In this document: positions 102-43,417 of the stretch, in pieces
Numbering within the stretch: position 1 is the first letter of the stretch
Layout of the letters: each line of letters begins with the position of its first letter
Origin: Candidatus Parcubacteria bacterium
Lineage (GTDB): Bacteria; Patescibacteriota; Minisyncoccia; Phycocordibacterales; UBA2100
Assembly (NCBI GenBank): GCA_039798465.1
Contig: JBDKGA010000038.1
Span: 1 to 45,405 of the forward strand
Direction of reading: 5' to 3'
DNA length: 45,405 nt
Position numbers and translations under genes: made by a program
The notes under the pieces: generated by a model
Database searches by the model: none
What the model saw: only the letters and a program-made list of their open reading frames with translations
Told to the model about the DNA's origin: nothing

Positions 102-202
102 GCGATAACAGTGGTCATGCAGGCCTGCTCGCAGCGCGACGGCGCGCGAGGAGCGCGTCGACAGCAGTCGACGACGCGTGCCTGCATGACCACTGTTATC
201 GC
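102..202 (+). repeat. Compound inverted-repeat element A (23-bp perfect arms, structured 55-nt interior)
   Basis: 102-124 (gcgataacagtggtcatgcaggc) is the exact reverse complement of 180-202. The interior has a cgcg/cgcg mini-hairpin (135-146), GAGGAG (148-153) and a cgtcga/tcgacg hairpin (156-173). Confidence 0.8.
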
Positions 203-204
203 GA

Positions 205-213
205 TGTTATACT
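205..213 (+). promoter_or_regulatory. Extended -10 promoter element (TGtTATACT) 6 nt upstream of ATG 220
   Basis: TG at 205-206 and TATACT at 208-213. The same -10-to-ATG spacing recurs at many genes in this window. Confidence 0.5.
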
Positions 214-6253: not shown

Positions 6254-7522
6254 CTACCGAATCGCCGCCTTGAGCTTTTCGACATCTGCATGCGGGCCAA
6301 TCACGGCAAGCGCGAGTCTTTCATTTTTGAGAATATTTTTGGCTACGCGCTGTACGTCTTTGGCAGTCACCTTATCTATCGCTTTGAGTGATTCTTCAAG
6401 TGTGCGAATACGCCCCAAGTGAATAAGCGAAGAAGCAGCGTGCTCGGCAATAGAATCAGACGATTCCATCGCAAGGGTGCTGGTGCCCTTCATGTACGAC
6501 TTTACTTTTTTGAGCTCGGTAGCTGGCACCGCCGTGCGTGCAATCTTTTTAAACTCATCGACGATAACTCGTAAGGCCTCCTCAAGCTTGGCGTGCTCCA
6601 CACCCGCCTGCACGGCGAGGTAGCCAGTGTCGGGATATTTATCTACCCACGCGTGCACCGAGTAGGCGAGCCCGCGCTTTTCGCGCACTTCGGTAAAGAG
6701 TCTGCTCGACATGCCGCCGCCGAGAATAGAGGACAAGACCGAGAGTGCGTACTCGTCTTTGTGCCCAAAGGGGTACGCTGGCACGCCTATCATGAGCTGA
6801 GTTTGATCAGTCTTTTTTTCTTTGATGCGCACTCCCGCAGCGGCTTGTATTGTCTCAAATTTTTCAGGGACCGATGGGGCAGTTGCTTTGAGCGCACCAA
6901 ATACTTTGCTTACTTTGGCCAGGACTTTTTTCTGATCAAATGCACCTGCCACACAGACCACTGTGTTGGTCGGGCCATAGTGGCGAGCACGATACTCTTC
7001 GAATTCTTTGCGCGTAAAGCTGCGAATATTTTCTTTGGGGCCCAAAATCGTGCGGCCGAGCGGGTGCTCATCGCCAAAGAGGAGCGCATCAAACACATTG
7101 TCGATGGTGCGCATCGGCATGTCTTCGTACATGTCTATCTCTTGAATCACTGCGCCACGCTCTTTTTCTATTTCCTTGGACGGGAGAGTGGAATTGAGAA
7201 AAATATCCGTTACCACGTCGAGTGCCTTCTCGAGATTTGCGCTCGAGGTTTTGGCCCAGTAGGCGGTGCGGTCTTTGCTGGTGAATGCATTGTACTGGCT
7301 GCCCAAGCCATCGAGCTCTTCGCTAATCGCCTTTGCAGTAGGGCGCTTTTTGGTGCCCTTAAAAAACATGTGCTCGAGAAAATGAGCCAGGCCATTTTCG
7401 CGCGCAGTCTCAAATCGGCTACCGGTGCCGCTCATTACTATTGCAGTCGCTGTCTGCGTCCCTGGCATGGGCGCGAGCACAATGCGGAGGCCGTTTTTAA
7501 GGATGTGGATGTGGTATTTCAT
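6254..7522 (-). CDS. M16 (pitrilysin) family zinc peptidase
   Basis: HFLEHMFFKGT carries the HxxEH motif, and the protein has two-domain M16 length. ATG 7522 (MKYHIHILKNGLRIV) is preferred because TACGAT (7529-7534) lies 6 nt upstream. The ORF track extends to 7621. Confidence 0.88.
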   Translation of the reverse strand: MKYHIHILKNGLRIVLAPMPGTQTATAIVMSGTGSRFETARENGLAHFLEHMFFKGTKKRPTAKAISEELDGLGSQYNAFTSKDRTAYWAKTSSANLEKALDVVTDIFLNSTLPSKEIEKERGAVIQEIDMYEDMPMRTIDNVFDALLFGDEHPLGRTILGPKENIRSFTRKEFEEYRARHYGPTNTVVCVAGAFDQKKVLAKVSKVFGALKATAPSVPEKFETIQAAAGVRIKEKKTDQTQLMIGVPAYPFGHKDEYALSVLSSILGGGMSSRLFTEVREKRGLAYSVHAWVDKYPDTGYLAVQAGVEHAKLEEALRVIVDEFKKIARTAVPATELKKVKSYMKGTSTLAMESSDSIAEHAASSLIHLGRIRTLEESLKAIDKVTAKDVQRVAKNILKNERLALAVIGPHADVEKLKAAIR

Positions 7523-8319: not shown

Positions 8320-10236
8320 ATGACCATCAACGACATCCGCTCCAAATACCTCGCCTACATGCAAAAGCACGGGCACGAGGTGATTCCCAGCTCTTCGCTC
8401 ATTCCGCAAAACGACCCCACTACGCTCTTTACTGGCTCGGGCATGCAGCAGCTCATGCCGTATCTCTTGGGACAATCGCACCCCAAGGGCGCACGCCTCA
8501 CCGATAGCCAAAAGTGTTTTCGCGCCGAAGATATAGAAGAGATAGGCGACAATCGCCACACCACCTTTTTTGAGATGCTCGGCAATTGGGCGCTCGGGGA
8601 TTATTTCAAAAAGGAGCAGCTGCCATTCTTTTTTGGATTCCTCGTCGACGAACTCGGCATAGATCCAAGCAAACTCTACGTAACGGTCTTTGCGGGCGAC
8701 GAAACAAACAACATCGCGCGCGACGACGAATCGGTACAGATATGGAAAGAACTCTTTGCGAGCAAGGGGATAGAGGCAACCGATGTAGTGATGGGGAGCG
8801 AAGAGGACGGCGCTCGGCTCGGCATGCGCGGCGGACGAATCTTTTACTACGATGTAAAAAAGAATTGGTGGAGTCGCGCAGGAATCCCCAGCAAGATGCC
8901 TGCAGGAGAGCCAGGCGGGCCCGATTCGGAAATGTTCTACGATTTCAGCACACCACACGATGCAAAATTTGGCGCCGAGTGCCACCCAAACTGCGATTGC
9001 GGACGCTTCATGGAAATAGGGAACTCGGTTTTTATGCAGTACCTCAAAACGCAAAACGGTTTTGAACTCTTGCCCAAGCAAAATGTAGATTTTGGCGGCG
9101 GGCTCGAACGCATTGCTGCCGCAGCAGCGGGTACGCCCGATGTGTTTGTCGCAGTAGATGTGCTCGCAAATATCATCGCACTCATTGCGCACTTTTCGGG
9201 CAAATCGTATGACGATTCGCGCTACACGCGCAGCTTCCGCATCATCGCCGATCACATGCGCGCAGCGACCTTTATGCTTGCGGCTGGCATCATTCCCTCA
9301 AACACCGAGCGCGGCTACGTATTGCGCCGTCTCATTCGCCGCGCAGCACTCCACGCGCAGAAGCTTGAGGTGGCCGACAAAGACGCGGGGGATTCGATGC
9401 TACACCGTGCTGCGATACTCATCATCGAATACTACAAACATGCGTACCCCGAGCTCGAGGGAGAGGAAGTATTTACCTTCATCACCACTGAGCTGCACAA
9501 AGAAGAAATGCAGTTTGCTCGTACACTCGCCGACGGGACAAAAGAATTTCAAAAAGCGGCGGCAACAGGTGCCATCACCGGCGAGCAAGCATTCACACTC
9601 TTCACAACACATGGGTTCCCGTTTGAACTCACACAAGAAATGGCACACGAACGCGGGCTCACTGTCGATGCCGAAGACTTTGCGGCACGCATGAAAGCCC
9701 ACCAAGACCTCTCGCGCTCTGGTAGCGAACAAAAGTTTAAGGGCGGACTCGCCGATGCGTCTGAGGAGACGACGCGCCTGCACACTGCGCACCATTTGCT
9801 CTTGCGTGCACTACAAATCGTGCTCGGCGATCAGGTAAAGCAGCGCGGAAGCAACATCACCAAAGAGCGATTGCGTATCGATTTTTCGTACGGCGCAAAA
9901 ATGACTCCCGAAGAAATAAAAAAGGTAGAAGATATTGTGAACGAGCAAATACAGGCTGCACTCCCCATGACGCGCTGGCAGGTGAGCAAAGAAGAGGCAG
10001 AAGCGACCGGCGCCGAGCACGAATTTGGCGCCAAATACCCCGACACCGTATCGGTGTACATGGTAGGAAATGTCGTGCCCGACGATTTTGCCGCGAGCGC
10101 CGCACAATCATTCTCCAAAGAATTCTGTGGCGGTCCGCACGTACAAAACACAAACGAGCTCAAGGGCACGTTTAAAATACTCAAAGAAGAAGCGTCGAGT
10201 GCCGGCGTACGCCGCATCAAGGCAGTGTTGCAGTAG
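8320..10236 (+). CDS. alaS: Alanine--tRNA ligase, short form without a C-Ala domain
   Basis: MTINDIRSKYLAYMQKHGHEVIPSSSLIP and FFEMLGNW (catalytic core). Editing-domain motifs HTAHHLL and CGGPHV. TACGCT (8308-8313) lies 6 nt before ATG 8320. The protein ends right after the editing domain. Confidence 0.93.
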   Translation: MTINDIRSKYLAYMQKHGHEVIPSSSLIPQNDPTTLFTGSGMQQLMPYLLGQSHPKGARLTDSQKCFRAEDIEEIGDNRHTTFFEMLGNWALGDYFKKEQLPFFFGFLVDELGIDPSKLYVTVFAGDETNNIARDDESVQIWKELFASKGIEATDVVMGSEEDGARLGMRGGRIFYYDVKKNWWSRAGIPSKMPAGEPGGPDSEMFYDFSTPHDAKFGAECHPNCDCGRFMEIGNSVFMQYLKTQNGFELLPKQNVDFGGGLERIAAAAAGTPDVFVAVDVLANIIALIAHFSGKSYDDSRYTRSFRIIADHMRAATFMLAAGIIPSNTERGYVLRRLIRRAALHAQKLEVADKDAGDSMLHRAAILIIEYYKHAYPELEGEEVFTFITTELHKEEMQFARTLADGTKEFQKAAATGAITGEQAFTLFTTHGFPFELTQEMAHERGLTVDAEDFAARMKAHQDLSRSGSEQKFKGGLADASEETTRLHTAHHLLLRALQIVLGDQVKQRGSNITKERLRIDFSYGAKMTPEEIKKVEDIVNEQIQAALPMTRWQVSKEEAEATGAEHEFGAKYPDTVSVYMVGNVVPDDFAASAAQSFSKEFCGGPHVQNTNELKGTFKILKEEASSAGVRRIKAVLQ

Positions 10237-10291: not shown

Positions 10292-11446
10292 ATGGGTTTT
10301 TCACTGGTACCTCACGGCAAAAAGATAGTGGCGCTCGCTGATATTGGCGGGAGTGGAAGCGCCTGCGCACTTGCTGATGCTGGCAATGTTCCCACACAGA
10401 TACAAGCAGTAGTACGCACACCTCATGTGCACGAAGATCGCCAGGGCGAACGCACGATTGCGCAACTCGCACAAACACTGAGCACAGCCTCTTCACAGCT
10501 CGCCACCATGTATACACAGCCCGGCATATCTCGTCCGAGCGAACTCTACGCAATCGCACACGCGCCGTGGATACAATCACGCAGCATCGTGACTGAGCGC
10601 TCCTTTGAAACCGAGACCAAAATTACCGAAAGTCTGATTGGCGACATGGCAAAAGAGGCACTCGCCGGAGACTCCTCGCTCGTACGCGAAGATGTGTGCG
10701 AGGGAAGCGTCTCTCATATAGAGCTCAACGGCTATCCGACACATGCACCTCACGGGAAAATGGCACACCATGTAAAAGTAGTGGTGCTGGTGAGCGAGAT
10801 GAAGCGCGCGCACCGCGACGAACTCGAACACGCACTCCGGCCTAGTTTCCCCGAAATACCGATACGATGGCGCTCGTATGCGCGCGCCTTGGCAAGCGTG
10901 CTCGGGGAGCGTGGGAGCGAATCACGAAATGCAGTCATATTCGATATTTCCGACGACGGCTCAGCGGTGTCGGTATTGCGCAAAAATGTACTCACCGAAC
11001 AAAAACAAATTGCTGCTGGTACCCAGACACTCCTTTCCCTCATTGCAGGAAAGGGTTCGCGCGAAGAAACACTCTCTCTTCTTTCGATGCTTGAGCACGG
11101 CACTTGTACGACAGCACAGTGCGACGAAATAAATGCCGCGCTTACTGAAGCCGAACCGGCGATTACAAAAATAGTAGGGCAGGGACTGGGAGACATGGCC
11201 GCCCAGCGACGTTTGCCCAACGAAGCATACCTCTTTATGCACGAAGACTTGGCCGAATGGTTTGCGCGTTTTATCGCTCGTATCGATTTTGCACAATTCA
11301 CCATATCCTCAAAGCCGTTTTCCGTGCATCCGCTCTCAGTCGCAGATTTTTCTCACGCGGTTGCATGGAATGCCGGGGTTGCACACGATTTAGGTATCGC
11401 ACTCGCCGCCGCGCTTGTGCACACAGAACTCCACAAAAATTCCTGA
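10292..11446 (+). CDS. Hypothetical protein, possibly actin-like ATPase fold (FtsA/PilM-like)
   Basis: IVALADIGGSGS and AVIFDISDDGSAVSVL resemble phosphate-1 and phosphate-2 motifs. TGGTATACT (10278-10286) lies 6 nt before ATG 10292. Confidence 0.45.
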   Translation: MGFSLVPHGKKIVALADIGGSGSACALADAGNVPTQIQAVVRTPHVHEDRQGERTIAQLAQTLSTASSQLATMYTQPGISRPSELYAIAHAPWIQSRSIVTERSFETETKITESLIGDMAKEALAGDSSLVREDVCEGSVSHIELNGYPTHAPHGKMAHHVKVVVLVSEMKRAHRDELEHALRPSFPEIPIRWRSYARALASVLGERGSESRNAVIFDISDDGSAVSVLRKNVLTEQKQIAAGTQTLLSLIAGKGSREETLSLLSMLEHGTCTTAQCDEINAALTEAEPAITKIVGQGLGDMAAQRRLPNEAYLFMHEDLAEWFARFIARIDFAQFTISSKPFSVHPLSVADFSHAVAWNAGVAHDLGIALAAALVHTELHKNS

Positions 11447-11469
11447 GTACGTGGTATAATACGCAGTAT

Positions 11470-12795
11470 ATGAGTGATTATTTTCAAGATATACTTCCTC
11501 CTGAGGGTGAGCCACGTAGGTCTGCACCTACTTCCGCACCCGAACCGGAGATTACTCCCGAAAAGAGTATCCGTAATATCAGCATAAGCCGCTCTCGTTC
11601 GGCACCCGAAAAGCGAGATATTCCTATGCCAACACTTTCTACAAACAAAAGGTCATTCATGCCTGGGTCGCGTGTGTGGCTTATTGCCGCACTGGCACTC
11701 TTTGTGCTCGGCATTTTGAGTTTGTTTATGTTCCGCAAGACCACCGTTACCGTGATTCCACGCACACACACCATTCTCTTCGATAACACCGCGCCTTTTA
11801 GCGCGTATCCTGCCGCAACAGCAGCCTCTGGAACACTCCCATACACTGTCCAGACCTTTTCTTTCGAAGACACTGAGGTTGTGGCTGCACAGGGGACCCA
11901 GCATGTAGAAACAAAAGCCTCAGGTTCTCTCACGGTCTACAATGATTTTTCTGCCGCTCCAGTAAAACTCTTGGCCTCTACCCGTTTTGAAACACCAGAA
12001 GGTCTGGTGTATCGCGTGCCAGCACAGATAGTTGTTCCCGGCAAAAACGGCAATACGCCGGGCAGTATCCAGGTAACGGTTGTTGCTGATGCAGTCGGTC
12101 CGAATTACAACGTCGGACCCGTTGCAAAGTTTACTCTGCCCGGCCTCAAGGGCGGCGCAATGTTTGAAAAAGTATACGCACAATCAACGAGTGCGTTTAC
12201 TGGCGGCTTTGCAGGTGAGCAGCCACAAACGGCACCAGGTGTCCTAGAAGGAGCAACGGCACAAATTCGCACGCGCCTCGATCAGAAGGTCCGCGATGCA
12301 ATGAACGCACTCAGCGGTTCTACCGCGCTTGCTGATTTGGCGCGAACCACATACACCGACTTGCCAAACGTTGCGGAAGCAGAAAACAGTGTCCGCGTAG
12401 GTCAGCGCATCGAAGTGCAGGTGCCTGTCTTTGCCACAAATGTACTCGCGGGGGCTCTCGCGCAATCGGTAAGTGCCGACGCGCAACTGAGTGATATTCG
12501 CTTGGTGCCCGGAGAAGGGTTTGCATCTAAATCAGCAGATGTTGCTTCGACCACACTGGGCTCTGATCCGATTTCCTTTACACTCAACGGCAAGGCACAG
12601 CTCGTCTGGCAGGTAAACGGCGAAGCTTTGGCTCAGGCCCTCGCAGGGAAAGACCAGGCAGCCTTCCAAACCATCATCGGCGGCTTCCCATTTGTACAGG
12701 AAGCCAAGGCACGAATTGAGCCGTTCTGGCGTTCTACCTTCCCGAAAGAGGCTTCTGCCATCACAATTGTAGTCGGGGAGACGCCAAAACCTTGA
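11470..12795 (+). CDS. Single-pass membrane protein with a large beta-rich extracytoplasmic domain (hypothetical)
   Basis: TGGTATAAT (11452-11460) lies 9 nt before ATG 11470. TM helix VWLIAALALFVLGILSLFMF. No family recognised. Confidence 0.7.
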   Translation: MSDYFQDILPPEGEPRRSAPTSAPEPEITPEKSIRNISISRSRSAPEKRDIPMPTLSTNKRSFMPGSRVWLIAALALFVLGILSLFMFRKTTVTVIPRTHTILFDNTAPFSAYPAATAASGTLPYTVQTFSFEDTEVVAAQGTQHVETKASGSLTVYNDFSAAPVKLLASTRFETPEGLVYRVPAQIVVPGKNGNTPGSIQVTVVADAVGPNYNVGPVAKFTLPGLKGGAMFEKVYAQSTSAFTGGFAGEQPQTAPGVLEGATAQIRTRLDQKVRDAMNALSGSTALADLARTTYTDLPNVAEAENSVRVGQRIEVQVPVFATNVLAGALAQSVSADAQLSDIRLVPGEGFASKSADVASTTLGSDPISFTLNGKAQLVWQVNGEALAQALAGKDQAAFQTIIGGFPFVQEAKARIEPFWRSTFPKEASAITIVVGETPKP

Positions 12796-17909: not shown

Positions 17910-17985
17910 TACTGCTCCACTAAACTATCCAATTGTCATATTTGCAGGAGCAAGGGGTCGTGATAGTCTAAGAGACACGAAACGT

Positions 17986-18567: not shown

Positions 18568-18641
18568 TTGACACAAACACGCACGCGATTACAATGTACC
18601 TGCTCCACTATTCTTAACATATGTTAAATTTAGAGGAGCAG
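18568..18641 (+). promoter_or_regulatory. dnaK promoter P1 plus nested palindromic operator candidate
   Basis: TTGACA (18568-18573), 16-nt spacer, TACAAT (18590-18595). Downstream is CTGCTCC (18600-18606) ... TTAACATATGTTAA (18614-18627, perfect 14-bp palindrome) ... GGAGCAG (18635-18641). Confidence 0.6.
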
Positions 18642-18693: not shown

Positions 18694-20544
18694 ATGAGCA
18701 AGATACTCGGTATAGACTTGGGCACAACAAATTCCGCCATGGCAGTGGTAAAAAGCGACGGCCCTGAAATTCTCGAAAATGCAGAGGGTGTGCGCACGAC
18801 GCCGTCGATTATCGCAACATCCAAGACAGGGGAGCGCTTGGTGGGGCTTCTCGCCAAGCGTCAGGCCGTCACTAATCCTCTCAACACGGTCTATCAGATC
18901 AAGCGCTTCATCGGACATACCTTCGACGAATCCGGCGTGCAGAAAGATAAATCTGCTGTTCCATTTGAGGTGCGCAAAGCACAAAACGGTGGTGTCGAGG
19001 TAAAAATGGCCGACAAGTGGTACCGCCCCGAAGAAGCCTCCGCGATGATACTGCAGAAGCTCAAGGCAGACGCAGAGGCACGTCTCGGCGAGCCTATTAC
19101 GGAAGCTGTCATTACCGTACCGGCATATTTCAACGACGCACAGCGTCAGGCAACAAAAGATGCTGGCAAAATTGCGGGACTCGACGTGAAGCGCATCATC
19201 AATGAACCCACCGCCGCCGCGCTCGCGTACGGCTTCAACAAAAAGAAAGACGAGAAGATTGTCGTATTCGACTTTGGTGGCGGCACCTTCGATATATCGG
19301 TACTCGAGGTTGGCGATGATGTTATCGAAGTTCGCAGCACCGACGGCGACGCCCACCTCGGCGGCAAAGACATCGACCAAAAGGTCATGCAGTGGCTTGC
19401 CGATGAGTTTAAAAAGGAGAGCGGTATCGACATCTTGAAAGACACGCTCGCGCGTCAGCGTCTCGACGAAGCAGCCGAAAAGGCAAAGATAGAGCTCTCC
19501 ACCGCTGTTGAGACCGAGGTAAACATACCCTTCATCACCTCTGATGCTTCGGGTCCGCGCCACTTGCTAGTAAAGCTCACGCGCGCAAAGCTCGAAGAGC
19601 TCACCCGTGAATTTGTAGACCGCGCCCTCAGTATCACCAAGCGCGCAATGGAAGCTTCGCCATTCAAGATAGGTGACATCAATGAAATAATCCTGGTTGG
19701 AGGTCAAACACGCATGCCGGCAATGCAGAAAGCGGTTGAAGACTACTTTGGCAAAAAGCCAAACATGAGCGTAAATCCCGATGAGGTCGTTGCCATGGGC
19801 GCAGCTATTCAGGGCGGCATTCTCCGCGGCGATGTCAAAGACGTGCTCTTGCTCGACGTCATCCCACTCTCACTCGGCATCGAAACAATGGGTGGCGTCG
19901 CGACCAAACTCATCGAACGCAATACCACTATCCCGACATCCAAATCACAAACGTTTTCTACCGCTTCAGACAATCAGCCGAGCGTGGAGATACACGTAGT
20001 ACAGGGAGAGCGCCCCATGGCGGCCGACAACAAATCGCTCGGGCGATTCAATCTCGATGGCATTCCACCAGCCACGCGTGGTACACCCAAAATCGAAGTC
20101 TCATTCGATATCGACGCCAATGGTATCTTGAGCGTCAAAGCAAAAGATCAGAACACCGGCAAGGAACAGTCTATTCGCATCGAAGCATCGTCGGGTCTCT
20201 CTGATGCTGATGTCGAAAAGATGCGCAAAGACGCAGAGCTCCATGCAGACGAAGACAAGAAAAAGCGCGAGCTCGTCGAAGTGCAAAACGGCGCGGAGCA
20301 ATTGGTCTACACTGCCGAAAAATCTCTCAAGGAATATGGCGACAAGGTGAGCGAGGATATCAAAAAGGAGGTTTCCGAGAAGCTCGAGAATCTCAAAGCG
20401 GCTCGCACTGGCACTGATTCGGCAGCTATTTCTGCGGCAAGCGACGCACTCTCAGGTGCGCTCTCAAAAATCGGAGAGGCGATACAGAAGCAGCAACCAG
20501 GCACTGAGACACCGCCACAAGACAGCGCACAAGCACAGCAATAA
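18694..20544 (+). CDS. dnaK: Molecular chaperone DnaK (Hsp70)
   Basis: [17 protein letters not shown]-type motif ([10 protein letters not shown]), VGGQTRMP and [12 protein letters not shown]. Confidence 0.98.
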
Positions 20545-20591: not shown

Positions 20592-21693
20592 ATGAGTAAG
20601 AACTACTACGACATCCTTGGCGTTGCAAAAAAACGCGAGCGAAGAGGACATCAAAAAGGCTTTTCGCAAGCTGGCACAGCAGTACCATCCCGACAAAAAA
20701 GGCGGCGATGAAAAACGCTTCAAGGAAGTGAGCGAAGCGTACGCCGTACTTTCCGACAAAAAGAAACGCGCCCAGTACGATCAGTTTGGGCAGTACCAGG
20801 CGGGCGGACCGCAGGGTGGCTTTGGTGGTGGCGCCGGATTCGAAGGATTTGATTTCTCTCAATTCCAAAATGGTTTCCAAGGGAGCTTCAACATGAACGG
20901 TCAGGAATTCGATATCGGCGATATCTTTGGCGAATTCTTTGGCGGCGCACGCGGCGCTTCGCGCGGAAAACCACGCGGTCGTGATATCTCAATAGATATA
21001 GAGCTCACCTTCAAAGAGGGGATTCTCGGTACCGAGCGTCGTGTCCTTATTGCAAAAGTTGCCTCCTGCGCCGAATGCTCAGGAACTGGGGCAAAAAAGG
21101 GAAGCAAGCTCACTACCTGCGCGACCTGCAACGGAAAGGGTGACATACGCGAAACTCGTAACACATTCTTTGGCGCCGTCACTACGGCCCGCGCATGCCC
21201 TTCGTGTGCCGGACGCGGTCAGACACCCGAAACTCCCTGTGCATCATGTCGCGGCGATGGTGTGCGCAAACAAGAAGAAGAAATACACGTGGTCGTTCCG
21301 GCCGGTGTCGAAGATGGCGAAATGATTCGCATGCCCGGCAAAGGCGAAGTCGCACCCGGTGGTGGAGCAGGGGATTTGTACGTCAAACTCCACGTTCGTG
21401 CCGATGCCCGTTTTGTGCGCGACGGTTCTCACCTCTACACAACTCTTTCAATAAAACTCACCGAGGCACTCCTTGGTGCCGAACGAGAGGTACCGACAAT
21501 AGAGGGGACCGCACGCATTGCGGTTCCGGCTGGCACGACACAGGGCGACACCGTGCGCGTGCGCGGCGAAGGCGTGCCCACAGGCCGAAGCGGTCGCGGA
21601 GATTTGATAGTGCGCATCTCGATAGATATGCCAAAAAAATTATCACGCACTGCGCGCGCGGCAATAGAAGAACTACAAAAAGAAGGCCTGTAG
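20592..21693 (+). CDS. dnaJ: Molecular chaperone DnaJ, reading frame interrupted in an A7 run (20627-20633)
   Basis: [12 protein letters not shown] is encoded from ATG 20592 in one frame. [23 protein letters not shown] continues in the frame of ORF 20617..21693. Four CxxCxGxG zinc-finger repeats are present. TATAAT (20577-20582) lies 9 nt before ATG 20592. Confidence 0.88.
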
Positions 21694-21794
21694 GCAAGAC
21701 ACATGCTCGCAAGGGGGTTCGCGCCGCGGCGGCGGTGCGACTTCAGGATTTTTCGAGCACGAAAAATGCGTATCCGAGCAAGCATGAGTCTTGC
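21694..21794 (+). repeat. Compound inverted-repeat element D
   Basis: Arms gcaagacacatgctcgc (21694-21710) and gcaagcatgagtcttgc (21778-21794) pair at 15 of 17 positions. Inner hairpin atttttcg-agca-cgaaaaat (21748-21767) is preceded by cagg. Confidence 0.6.
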
Positions 21795-21866
21795 TGTTTC
21801 TGCGCGACAAAAACTTACACACCTTCCTGCGTTGAAAACACGCTCTAAACGCGCGATACTTCATCT

Positions 21867-22361
21867 ATGGATTTGGCTGCCTCTACTACTGCTGCACTAG
21901 TTACTATCTCAAATCTGCCTGCCGATATATTCATCATCGGCGCACTCGCTCTCGCCGGTACATTTGACGGATACCGCACGGGAGCTGCCTATGCGAGCAG
22001 CGCGGCTCTAGCGCTCATTTGTGCCTCATATCTTTCTGCACTATTTCCACACACGGCACTTATCGCCACCCTTCCTCCCGCACCATATCAAGCCGCCGCA
22101 CTCGTCGGAGTACTAGCGGTCATCTTTTTCTTCCTACTGCGACGTATGACCGAAGTATTTGGATATGGCACCTCTGGCCTCGTGTCCGGGCTCCTTGCGG
22201 GAGCCGGATTTACCGCGATTGTTGTCAGTGTATGGGTGGGTACTCCCGCACTTGATGCAGTATGGGCATTCGGTCCTTCCATTAAAACGGTTGTTTCTGA
22301 GAGCTACCGCCTCTATCTTATCGTTGGCGGTTGTGCAGCGCTCGCCTTTGCGCGGACATAA
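21867..22361 (+). CDS. Hypothetical integral membrane protein (about 4 TM, possibly CvpA-like)
   Basis: Hydrophobic 164-aa ORF. GATACT (21855-21860) lies 6 nt before the ATG. Confidence 0.6.
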   Translation: MDLAASTTAALVTISNLPADIFIIGALALAGTFDGYRTGAAYASSAALALICASYLSALFPHTALIATLPPAPYQAAALVGVLAVIFFFLLRRMTEVFGYGTSGLVSGLLAGAGFTAIVVSVWVGTPALDAVWAFGPSIKTVVSESYRLYLIVGGCAALAFART

Positions 22362-41645: not shown

Positions 41646-42830
41646 ATGCATGTTTTTGACCTCACTCACGTTGCTCTCGTTCTCTTCCTCGTGCTCGGAG
41701 GCGGATTATTTTTGGAGCGATTGCGACAGCCTGCACTCGTGGGGTATCTCTTTATGGGTGCCATCATTGGGCCGGGGCTACTAGGCCTCCAGGGAGACGA
41801 TGTCACCGTACGCTGGCTCGCCGAGCTCGCGATTGTACTTCTCATGTTTATGCTCGGACTCGAGCTCAATCTCAGCTTTTTTCGCGAATCAATAGGAAAG
41901 GCACTGGGTATCGCTCTTTCGCAAGTACTCGTCAGTGTGAGTGCCATGCTTGGTCTCACGTTCTTCTTTGATATTAGTCTCGAAACCGCTGTGCTCTTTG
42001 GATTTATTGCGGCGCTCTCTTCTACGGCAGTAGCCATGACCATGCTGCGCAATCTGGGCGAAGAGCACACCGAAATGGGTCACACCGCAACAGCCATACT
42101 TGTCGCGCAAGATATTCTCGTGGTACCTATGCTCCTCGTGGTGAGTATTCTCGGAGAAGGTTTTACGGTAGATGGCGTGCTGCATCTCGGCATTTCTCTG
42201 AGCGTTATCGCAGCGACACTCTTTGGTATTTTTGAGCTGGCTCAGCACCCCCAGTGGGTCGCGCGTCTCGAATCATTCTTTACACGCGGCGCCTCACAGC
42301 CGGTGGTTGCCGCTATGACATTGTGCTTTGGCGCTGCAGCACTTTCGGGCTCTGTCGGCCTCTCTACTGCCTATGGCGCATTTGCAATCGGACTCCTTAT
42401 TGGAAACATGGGTACTATCGGCGCATCGTATCGCAGCGCGATTGAGCCCATACACGAACTCCTCATGATGGTGTTCTTTTTGTCTATTGGGCTTTTGCTT
42501 GATATCGGATTCATTCTGACAAATCTCCCACTCATCGGGGTACTGCTTGCTGTTACTGTTCTTCTCAAAACCGCCTTCACGGTGTTCATTGCGCGCATCG
42601 CCGGTATACGAAGTGAAATCGCATTACCGCTCGGCGCAGTCTTGGGGCAAATCGGAGAGTTCTCTTTCGTACTACTCGCGCTCGGTCTCTCTACCGGATT
42701 TCTTACTCACGAAACATATCAAATGGGACTGTCTGTTATTGCACTCTCGCTCGTGATTTCCCCGCTATGGTATTCATTGATGCGGCACCACTTGCGCACT
42801 GTGCACAGCATAGAGCACGCACGCGCCTAA
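41646..42830 (+). CDS. Cation:proton antiporter (CPA2/Kef-type membrane domain only)
   Basis: About 12 TM helices. PALVGYLFMGAIIGPGLLG and GQIGEFSFVLLALG are typical of the Na+/H+ exchanger family. TGaTATAAA (41631-41639) lies 6 nt before the ATG. Confidence 0.82.
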   Translation: MHVFDLTHVALVLFLVLGGGLFLERLRQPALVGYLFMGAIIGPGLLGLQGDDVTVRWLAELAIVLLMFMLGLELNLSFFRESIGKALGIALSQVLVSVSAMLGLTFFFDISLETAVLFGFIAALSSTAVAMTMLRNLGEEHTEMGHTATAILVAQDILVVPMLLVVSILGEGFTVDGVLHLGISLSVIAATLFGIFELAQHPQWVARLESFFTRGASQPVVAAMTLCFGAAALSGSVGLSTAYGAFAIGLLIGNMGTIGASYRSAIEPIHELLMMVFFLSIGLLLDIGFILTNLPLIGVLLAVTVLLKTAFTVFIARIAGIRSEIALPLGAVLGQIGEFSFVLLALGLSTGFLTHETYQMGLSVIALSLVISPLWYSLMRHHLRTVHSIEHARA

Positions 42831-42831
42831 A

Positions 42832-43275
42832 TTATTCTCCCTGCACTACCACGGTGATAGTGGCCTTGTGGCCATGGAGATCGGCTACTACTTCAAAATC
42901 GCCAAATGTTTTGATGTGTTCTGCTGCTGCCAGGTGATGTGCGTCTACCTGCACACCATGTTCGTGTACTATCGCTGCCGCGATATCGGCCGGTGAGATT
43001 TGTTTGTAGAGGTGTCGCTGCTCGTTGCCCTTGGCAAAAATCGTAACGATTTTTCCCTGCAATTTTTGTGCGTCTTTCGCGGCCTGCTGCTCAGCCGAAG
43101 CGTGTGCGCTCTGTTCTACCCCCTTTTTCTTTTCGAGTGCTGCGACACGCTCGGGAGTCGCCTGGACCGCCTTGCCCTGTGGAATCAGTGAGTTCATGGC
43201 ATAGCCATCACTCACCTCTTTTATCTCGTCGCGTCTCCCCACGCCCCCTACATCCTTCACGAAAATGACTTTCAT
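42832..43275 (-). CDS. rplI: 50S ribosomal protein L9
   Basis: [37 protein letters not shown]. Confidence 0.92.
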
Positions 43276-43318: not shown

Positions 43319-43417
43319 CGGCGAACGAGGTTTTCGAGAACCTCTGCAGCGCGACGGCGCGAAGCTGAGGAATTTTATAGCAATAAAATTCCGTGTTCGA
43401 GGAAACCTCGTTCGCCG
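43319..43417 (+). repeat. Compound inverted-repeat element B (15-bp perfect arms)
   Basis: cggcgaacgaggttt (43319-43333) is the exact reverse complement of 43403-43417. Core gcagcgcgacggcgcg (43346-43361) is identical to 131-146. Inner hairpin ggaatttta-tagcaa-taaaattcc spans 43369-43392. Confidence 0.8.

Follow-up and report, generated by a model that had tools for sequence, protein, structure and literature searches.

The compound palindrome at positions 102–202 of the 45,405-nt stretch of DNA analysed here (the window) belongs to a family of structured, non-coding elements of about 100–160 nt, which was found exclusively in CPR/Patescibacteria within the collections searched. Its members share one fold with covarying helices, are present or missing at the same sites in related genomes and occur as near-identical copies at unrelated loci. 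The explanation that we rank first, and to which we give even confidence, is a mobile structured element similar to REP or MITE elements, the apex of which is read by a putative factor. The family is uncatalogued in the sense that Rfam 15 contains no model of it; no earlier account was found in a limited literature search, so that a prior description is possible.

The 23-bp perfect inverted repeat around a 55-nt core, which was the starting point of the original prediction, was exact on re-examination. Positions 102–124 (GCGATAACAGTGGTCATGCAGGC) are the reverse complement of positions 180–202, and the chance expectation for 23-bp perfect inverted repeats with a spacer of up to 200 nt is about 1e-7 per 45 kb (estimated as 45405 x 200 / 4^23). 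When folded with RNAfold, both strands were far more stable than shuffled sequences (z = -9.8 and -10.3). On the plus strand, the two arms form the closing stem P1 (5' arm 102–124, 3' arm 180–202), which encloses the hairpins P2 (128–150) and P3 (153–177). P2 was assigned from the RNAfold structure, the alignment to the covariance model R2 (67.6 bits) and the covariation within the family. It consists of a lower helix CUC/GAG, an upper helix of GCGC (134–137) and GCGC (142–145) and the loop GACG (138–141). P3 carries the loop AGCA (163–166) and a bulged A at position 174.

The two hairpins and the box that had been predicted inside the repeat are present, with altered boundaries. The mini-hairpin read as cgcg-acgg-cgcg (135–146) exists, shifted by one base to GCGC-GACG-GCGC, because the covariation in the family (GGGC/GCCC, GCCU/AGGC, CCGC/GCGG) fixes this register. 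The letters of the GAGGAG box (148–153) are there; they do not constitute a free Shine-Dalgarno-like box, and in typical members this site comprises the conserved GA junction and the first paired bases of P3 (GGAA/UUCC). The second hairpin, cgtcga/tcgacg, corresponds to P3, the actual loop being AGCA with a closing C-G pair instead of cagcag. This copy is a somewhat atypical member. In P2, the pairs G131-C147 and C132-G146 and the bulged A133 occupy the place of the G(C/G)A/GA internal loop, so that G-C stands for the usual G-A, and the base of the P3 stem is GC-rich, where GGAA/UUCC is usual. This copy nevertheless retains the bulged A and the CAGCAG loop.

Upstream of the element, the predicted terminator at 1–28 is real and separate from the palindrome, and a second terminator-like hairpin is located at about 42–88; both are on the plus strand and each is followed by a T-run. 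In L001, a longer contig of the same strain (compared loci are referred to by L numbers), the terminator at 1–28 follows the stop codon of a sigma70_r4/HARE-HTH gene, and the order is this gene, the two terminator-like hairpins, the element and a leaderless DUF8128 gene. A terminator scan called positions 1–19 and left 102–202 uncalled. Directly after positions 202 and 43417, the ends of the two firm copies in the window, no T-run or U-tract of an intrinsic terminator was found. Downstream, in the flank outside the repeat, the extended -10 element TGTTATACT (205–213, plus strand) precedes the ATG at position 220 of the DUF8128 gene by a gap of 6 nt (205–222). As had been predicted, the right arm lies at the -35 position of this promoter (ATGACC, 186–191). 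The -10 element and its distance to the ATG are retained in the relatives L007, L010 and L011, all of which are devoid of the element.

The window is part of the chromosome of a Candidatus Kaiserbacteria bacterium (CPR/Patescibacteria). Its genes are housekeeping genes with homologues named Kaiserbacteria or Parcubacteria, and a search for tRNA and tmRNA genes found none. The leaderless arrangement, in which 6 nt separate a -10 box from the ATG, is present at three genes of the window and also in relatives: at the DUF8128 gene (205–222, TGTTATACT), at rplI (43309–43273, minus strand, TTGACT-16-TACAAT) and at a gene starting at 21867 (21834–21869, TTGAAA-17-GATACT). The heat-shock cluster contains two copies of a separate 41-nt palindrome, CTGCTCC-N27-GGAGCAG (17912–17952 and 18600–18640), one between grpE upstream and a PaaX-like regulator gene downstream, and the other between a TTGACA-N17-TACAAT promoter and dnaK. 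By its appearance this palindrome looks like a repressor operator other than CIRCE.

The 16-mer GCAGCGCGACGGCGCG is present exactly twice in the window, at 131–146 and 43346–43361, both times on the plus strand and at the equivalent position of the fold just inside the left arm. This confirms the recurrence proposed by the original prediction, and the second site is likewise a compound palindrome of the same build. Its arms (43319–43341 and 43395–43417, 23 nt each with a 53-nt spacer) form the only other long inverted repeat of such geometry in the window. Copy 2 (43319–43417, plus strand) scored 66.4 bits with R2, which was run on the window with filters off. It comprises P1 (43319–43341/43395–43417), P2 (43342–43366, GACG loop 43353–43356), the GA junction (43367–43368) and P3 (43369–43392, AGCA loop 43379–43382). 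Both regions adopt a common shape, in which a long stem closes a three-way junction that bears two short hairpins, with z values of about -7 to -10 against shuffled sequences. The neighbours of copy 2 are an S41 protease gene and rplI, the end of the copy being 9 nt away from the -35 box of rplI; since both genes are on the minus strand, the motif strand runs antisense to the two of them. In this region, an Na+/H+ exchanger gene (plus strand) and rplI (minus strand) converge at 42830–42832, where 1 nt separates them and no terminator is present. Transcripts reading through from the exchanger gene would traverse rplI in antisense and enter copy 2 in sense orientation.

A possible divergent third copy is located at approximately 21693–21795 on the plus strand (23.7 bits with R1 and 23.8 bits with R2, E about 1e-3). 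Its first position coincides with the last base of the dnaJ stop codon, and it possesses a long P1 (GCAAGAC.CAUGCU/AGCAUG.GUCUUGC), a P3 with an AGCA loop and, at the position of P2, a GC hairpin without the GACG loop. Its membership is only tentative, because the score is no better than those of the two best chance matches in the control with non-CPR loci.

Pattern scans and two covariance models (R1, built from 15 sequences, and R2, built from 24) revealed at least 20 distinct members, all of them from CPR/Patescibacteria. A repeated structured family, as had been claimed, is therefore real and widespread in the CPR, and the alternative of a palindrome without further copies or conservation clearly fails. 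The metagenome scan used the 16-mer plus GAGGA and the genome scan a relaxed loop. The size and the taxonomic breadth of the family given here are minimum estimates. Most of the scan matches listed were chance matches in GC-rich genomes (110 of the 120-odd listed from the relaxed-loop genome scan). After filtering for the flanking stem, members among the listed matches occurred only in contigs of 37–59% GC. Records with members that bear an organism name always belonged to a CPR lineage, namely Kaiserbacteria (L174, L235), Taylorbacteria (L169), Paceibacterota/Paceibacteria (L132, L189, L245) and Saccharibacteria (L141, L143). Members scored 55–95 bits with R1 and R2, and both models detected additional copies within the same loci. 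The control, 100 non-CPR loci (726 kb) matching the string pattern, gave two marginal matches of 24–26 bits. Three copies were found in 5.9 kb of L031, two in 8 kb of L235, two in 9 kb of L019 and two or three in L169, in addition to the two firm copies and one tentative copy in the 45-kb window.

The whole window gave no match to any Rfam 15 family at gathering thresholds. When two members were compared at E values up to 10, the matches were limited to generic hairpin models of miRNA precursors and scored far below their thresholds. The Rfam ribozyme models gave no match, and in a comparison by eye neither attC nor a K-turn, bulge-helix-bulge, hammerhead or twister fits. BLAST against phage and plasmid collections detected no members, the plasmids yielding only short chance matches, and a pattern scan of viral contigs gave 3 matches, all in GC-rich contigs (63–68% GC) without the stem. 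The possibility of phage-derived, spacer-like arms was also considered. The P1 arm of copy 1 was absent from viral contigs, and 32 matches were obtained with a 16-nt pattern of the copy 2 arm that included one degenerate position, a number judged near chance at such a length; these searches, a weak test, did not support a phage origin.

In the consensus, P1 comprises 20–45 bp with a sequence particular to each copy, and its inner segment, approximately UUUUGAGRG/CYCUCAAAA, is semi-conserved in many members. A junction of 0–3 nt leads to P2, which consists of a variable lower helix of 3–5 bp, an internal loop in which G-(C/G)-A faces G-A, a helix of 4 bp and a GACG loop (linear form 5'-G(C/G)A-[4 bp]-GACG-[4 bp]-GA). 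The loop was assigned as GACG because the 4-bp helix covaries in the manner that also fixed the register of copy 1. P2 and P3 are connected by a GA junction. The base of P3 is usually GGAA...UUCC; its 3' side often carries a bulged A, and its loop is AGCA or AGUA with a closing C-G pair. P3 is followed by a G, 0–2 nt and the 3' strand of P1.

In the alignment of 24 sequences, 90.5% of the cells were paired and 27 of the 28 pairs had changed on both sides, with the reservation that these numbers are inflated by the fitting of the alignment to the model. None of 500 shuffles reached any of the five measures, and slid partners reduced pairing to 35–63%. Support independent of the model comes from single-sequence folds, which all gave the same architecture, from the covariation of the 4-bp helix of P2, and from pairwise alignments, which agree with it. 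The proposed helices thus show the compensatory pair changes of a conserved structured motif. Furthermore, at 13 unpaired positions 21–24 of the 24 sequences have the same nucleotide.

In 20 of 23 members, the fold of the motif strand has a higher stability than that of the complementary strand. On the motif strand G-U outnumbers A-C, though not significantly, by 21 to 13 in the alignment (p = 0.11) and by 13 to 6 in a gapless walk along P1, and the AT-rich members L127, L114 and L243 contain several G-U pairs and no A-C. These data are suggestive of a strand-specific fold, which would be compatible with either RNA or single-stranded DNA. When the loci were oriented by the element, GC skew and coding-strand bias were both inconsistent; the skew was negative in 10 of 14 loci, although small, and gave no clear link to replication.

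P1 is a fast-evolving part of the unit that is kept paired, because subfamilies share P1 homology with paired changes across genomes. L031b and L127 possess homologous P1 sequences in different genomes, with point changes passing through G-U. The cores of L037 and L169a are identical at 55 of 57 positions, while their P1 stems differ in mirrored blocks (AGC/GCT to GTG/CAC; AGTGC/GCACT to TAGCT/AGCTA) and retain the non-Watson-Crick segment GCGAAAGAA/TTCTGTAGC. These mirrored 3- and 5-nt stem blocks lie in L037 775–930 and L169 3355–3510, and such block-wise compensation could be due to hairpin-templated repair rather than stepwise selection. Within one genome the P1 arms differ among copies, as in the window, L031 and L235, and they are shared only within subfamily pairs.

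Gain or loss of the element is seen at copy 2. The spacer between the protease gene and rplI comprises 164 nt in the window in comparison to 43 nt in a relative with a 94% identical protease, and 8, 21 and 9 nt in three further relatives; all four lack the element. The extra DNA in the window corresponds to the 99-nt element plus 22 nt. The model, run with filters off, found no family member in about 89 kb of the relatives compared at this site (L255–L260).

At the site of copy 1, the spacer between the sigma-like gene and the DUF8128 gene comprises 239 nt in the window, compared to 63–123 nt in six Kaiserbacteria relatives (L007, L010, L011 and L293–L295), in none of which the model found a family member. 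L011, L293 and L294 contain just a terminator and/or promoter there. The element behaves like an insertion and unlike a conserved regulatory site, since the closest relatives are devoid of it at the same sites; a conserved regulatory site of the DUF8128 promoter was rejected for the reason that relatives keep this promoter without the element. A bona fide member was detected between the orthologous genes of L132, a distant Paceibacterota, in the same orientation (72 bits), where the flanking orthologues are 48% and 35% identical to those of the window.

The copy 1 locus is a hot spot for palindromic repeats, two of the six relatives carrying others there. In L007, whose DUF8128 protein is 87% identical, an unrelated palindrome occupies 1679–1771 with 19-nt arms and also a 55-nt spacing. 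It may have arisen from the element by decay or have been inserted independently, and R2 gave no match to it. In L295, a pair of 98% identical compound palindromes of 176 nt (9508–9683 and 11375–11550) flanks the DUF8128 gene, with perfect outer arms of 18 nt and a three-way fold of -101 kcal/mol. It is a second family of palindromic repeats at this hot spot, in another Kaiserbacteria genome.

The mnmA-like genes of L010 and L011 carry further long inverted repeats at their 3' ends (L010 7003–7093, 38 nt, 79% complementarity; L011 13370–13419, 23 nt, 96% complementarity); these repeats are missing from the shorter mnmA of the window. Two independent metagenome contigs of the same strain as the window, L004 and L005, begin inside the left arm of copy 1 (their position 1 is window position 105), and two other same-strain contigs begin just upstream of it. 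Thus, two of the six contigs with the downstream DUF8128 gene start within the left arm, and the element appears to break short-read metagenome assemblies.

Near-identical paralogues are represented by L101 and L013, which belong to one assembly (coverage 23 and 21.5) and carry copies of about 98% identity (2 differences in about 107 nt). This identity extends precisely to the ends of P1, beyond which the two loci have unrelated flanks. Neither the boundaries of this pair nor the comparison of the filled and empty copy 2 sites, the two informative comparisons, revealed a target-site duplication, and the boundaries of L101 and L013 also showed no conserved terminal motif.

The copies are intergenic, occur in either orientation with up to three per 6 kb and essentially fill their spacers, a qualitative result because the outermost pairs of minimum-free-energy folds overshoot. 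The upstream gene is co-oriented in about 12 of 22 cases, at least five copies lie between convergent genes and two in divergent spacers, and three (43319–43417 and both copies of L235) are antisense to both neighbours. The 5' arm of P1 is often found 0–10 nt past a stop codon. T-runs follow P1 in some members (L031, L127, L132), and in some the polarity is reversed, a U-tract lying 5' and an A-tract 3'. Copies on the same contig tend to share their orientation (8 pairs same, 3 opposite).

The REP/MITE-like reading is favoured because of the presence or absence in close relatives, the near-identical paralogues, the strictly intergenic location in both orientations and the local clustering. The invariant apex, the covariation in all three helices and the conserved non-canonical features point to a folded single strand which is read by something specific. 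Several observations speak against this explanation. Copies of the same genome have no common P1 sequence; recently transposed MITEs or REPs normally have shared ends. Target-site duplications and a conserved terminal motif were both not found. A tblastn search with a Y1 transposase protein of L295 detected no homologue in the window or any member locus, which is a weak counter-argument as these are genome fragments (about 55 kb for the genome of the window). Invariant loops and junctions, covarying helices, tandem G-A and the bulged A are the signature of a functional RNA and not of selfish DNA, and the strand evidence (20 of 23 members; G-U to A-C 21:13 and 13:6) is suggestive at best. A simple 3'-UTR role fails as a use common to all copies, because 43319–43417 and both L235 copies are antisense to both neighbours, and copies 1 and 2 have no U-tract after P1.

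Ranked second is a structured RNA family that serves the host and is not mobile, an explanation we regard as possible and somewhat doubtful. The copies would be transcribed, the apex would bind a protein or ligand or be catalytic, P1 would function as a stem for RNase III or for stability, and the copies would stem from ordinary duplication and be held by selection. This is consistent with the covarying helices, invariant tetraloops, internal-loop purines and bulged A, with the better folding of the motif strand in 20 of 23 members, with the G-U pairs that build up on this strand in AT-rich L127, L114 and L243, and with the conserved non-Watson-Crick segment in the P1 of one subfamily. The frequent position of the 5' arm of P1 0–10 nt beyond the stop codon of a co-oriented upstream gene also fits, and according to textbook knowledge a P1 of 20–45 bp would suit the needs of RNase III. 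It is difficult, however, to reconcile with the absence from close relatives at the same sites, with near-identical copies at unrelated loci and with the mixed orientation, including divergent spacers and positions antisense to both neighbours; in addition, the copies of the window have no consistent promoter upstream of P1. RNA-type conservation and mobile-element behaviour would be reconciled if the apex (P2, GA, P3 and the following G) were a new CPR-specific class of functional RNA spreading via an RNA intermediate. We consider this rather improbable. Riding on a long hairpin, such an apex might cleave or process itself as a ribozyme, or it might be the module that a reverse transcriptase or an RNA-binding protein recognises, and the element would then be a bacterial counterpart of SINEs or retrozymes.

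The idea of an operator in double-stranded DNA, in which the 23-bp arms are regulator sites for the leaderless DUF8128 promoter, accounts for a right arm covering the -35 position and an element abutting the extended -10. It is largely refuted and very improbable, as relatives retain the promoter without the arms and other copies lie between convergent genes, away from promoters. The complete difference of the arms among copies, with pairing kept by compensatory change, argues for a folded strand and against sequence-specific half-sites. A further explanation takes the element for an intrinsic terminator of unusual length or for an idiosyncratic palindrome generated by template switching, without meaning for a family, and might account for the hairpins of differing sequence in the same spacer of L007, L010 and L011 and the T-runs after L031, L127 and L132. 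Two terminator-like hairpins are already present upstream, though, no U-tract follows position 202, and at least 20 members with an invariant apex across CPR classes refute this explanation, to which we assign hardly any probability.

Among known systems, the REP/BIME/REPIN sequences, which are mobilised by RAYT Y1 transposases, resemble the family in being short, non-coding, extragenic and multi-copy, in forming imperfect hairpins as single strands, in occurring in either orientation and in varying in presence between strains. The members found here are likewise extragenic and multi-copy, and P2 itself is a REP-sized imperfect palindrome with a fixed asymmetry. However, the conserved 5' GTAG of REPs is absent from the P2/P1 boundaries of the 24-sequence alignment and occurs only sporadically in flanks (L101, L013), and the combination of a variable stem P1 and a conserved apex is the reverse of a REPIN. 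A REP/RAYT-like arrangement is present in the Kaiserbacteria relative L295. There, a Y1_Tnp gene (19110–19865, 232 aa, IS200/RAYT-like, HYH motif, 28 bits) has the 28-nt palindrome AAYCCTAGAGGCGTCGCCTCTAGGATT on either side, and a third copy of this palindrome lies 13 kb away (6308–6335); these palindromes differ in sequence from the family.

The MITE-like repeats Correia/NEMIS, ERIC, RUP and Rickettsia RPE are similar in size (about 100–160 nt), are non-coding, have ends which pair into a long hairpin, show insertion polymorphism and insert in intergenic regions by promoters and terminators, where they may supply parts of promoters. In contrast to the family, their copies share terminal repeats and the whole sequence and have target-site duplications. 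The family has copy-specific arms, no visible duplication and helices which covary across phylum-level distances; terminal inverted repeats common to the copies, typical of MITEs, were not found in the window, L031 or L235, where the P1 arms differ. Integron attC sites also depend on structure more than on sequence, are recognised as folded single strands, vary in length and contain unpaired bases that matter. They conserve the base of the stem (R''/R' boxes) and vary the tip, whereas the family does the opposite: the base of P1, where attC has its R''/R' core sites (RYYYAAC...GTTRRRY), is unconserved in the 24-sequence alignment. Cassette arrays or an integrase context were also not found, the neighbours being housekeeping genes. 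Structured RNA motifs of the Rfam kind, known from comparative genomics, share the three-way junction, covarying stems, invariant loop and junction nucleotides and the variety of contexts. The family differs from them by the lack of an Rfam 15 match, and a P1 of 20–45 bp, presence or absence in close relatives and near-identical paralogues are unusual there.

If the family is mobile in a REP- or MITE-like manner, the elements would spread and disappear as REP or MITE elements do, and their insertion targets would be the short intergenic spacers of compact genomes, in both orientations. The fold would be maintained since a single-stranded form is recognised by a trans-acting factor via the invariant apical nucleotides; this form might be a transcript or single-stranded DNA exposed in replication or transposition. 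In the case of copy 1, insertion would have placed a very stable hairpin downstream of the terminators of the sigma-like gene and upstream of the leaderless DUF8128 promoter; this hairpin probably acts as a transcript-end or insulator structure, with the right arm now at the position of the -35 box. The host probably uses the element as an intergenic hairpin next to leaderless promoters.

The CPR/Patescibacteria represent a large share of bacterial diversity, and to our knowledge almost nothing is known on their non-coding elements. The 13 invariant or nearly invariant unpaired nucleotides together with three covarying helices, from Saccharibacteria to Paceibacteria, imply a conserved partner, which may be a protein, an enzyme or a catalytic fold. 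As Saccharibacteria have cultured representatives, this question is open to experiment. A conserved apex with free arms is a pattern outside the usual logic of MITE or REP elements. Since the copies adjoin leaderless promoters or gene ends in genomes with short spacers, their gain or loss probably alters local transcription, and, if mobile, the element would be usable as a marker of strain-level variation.
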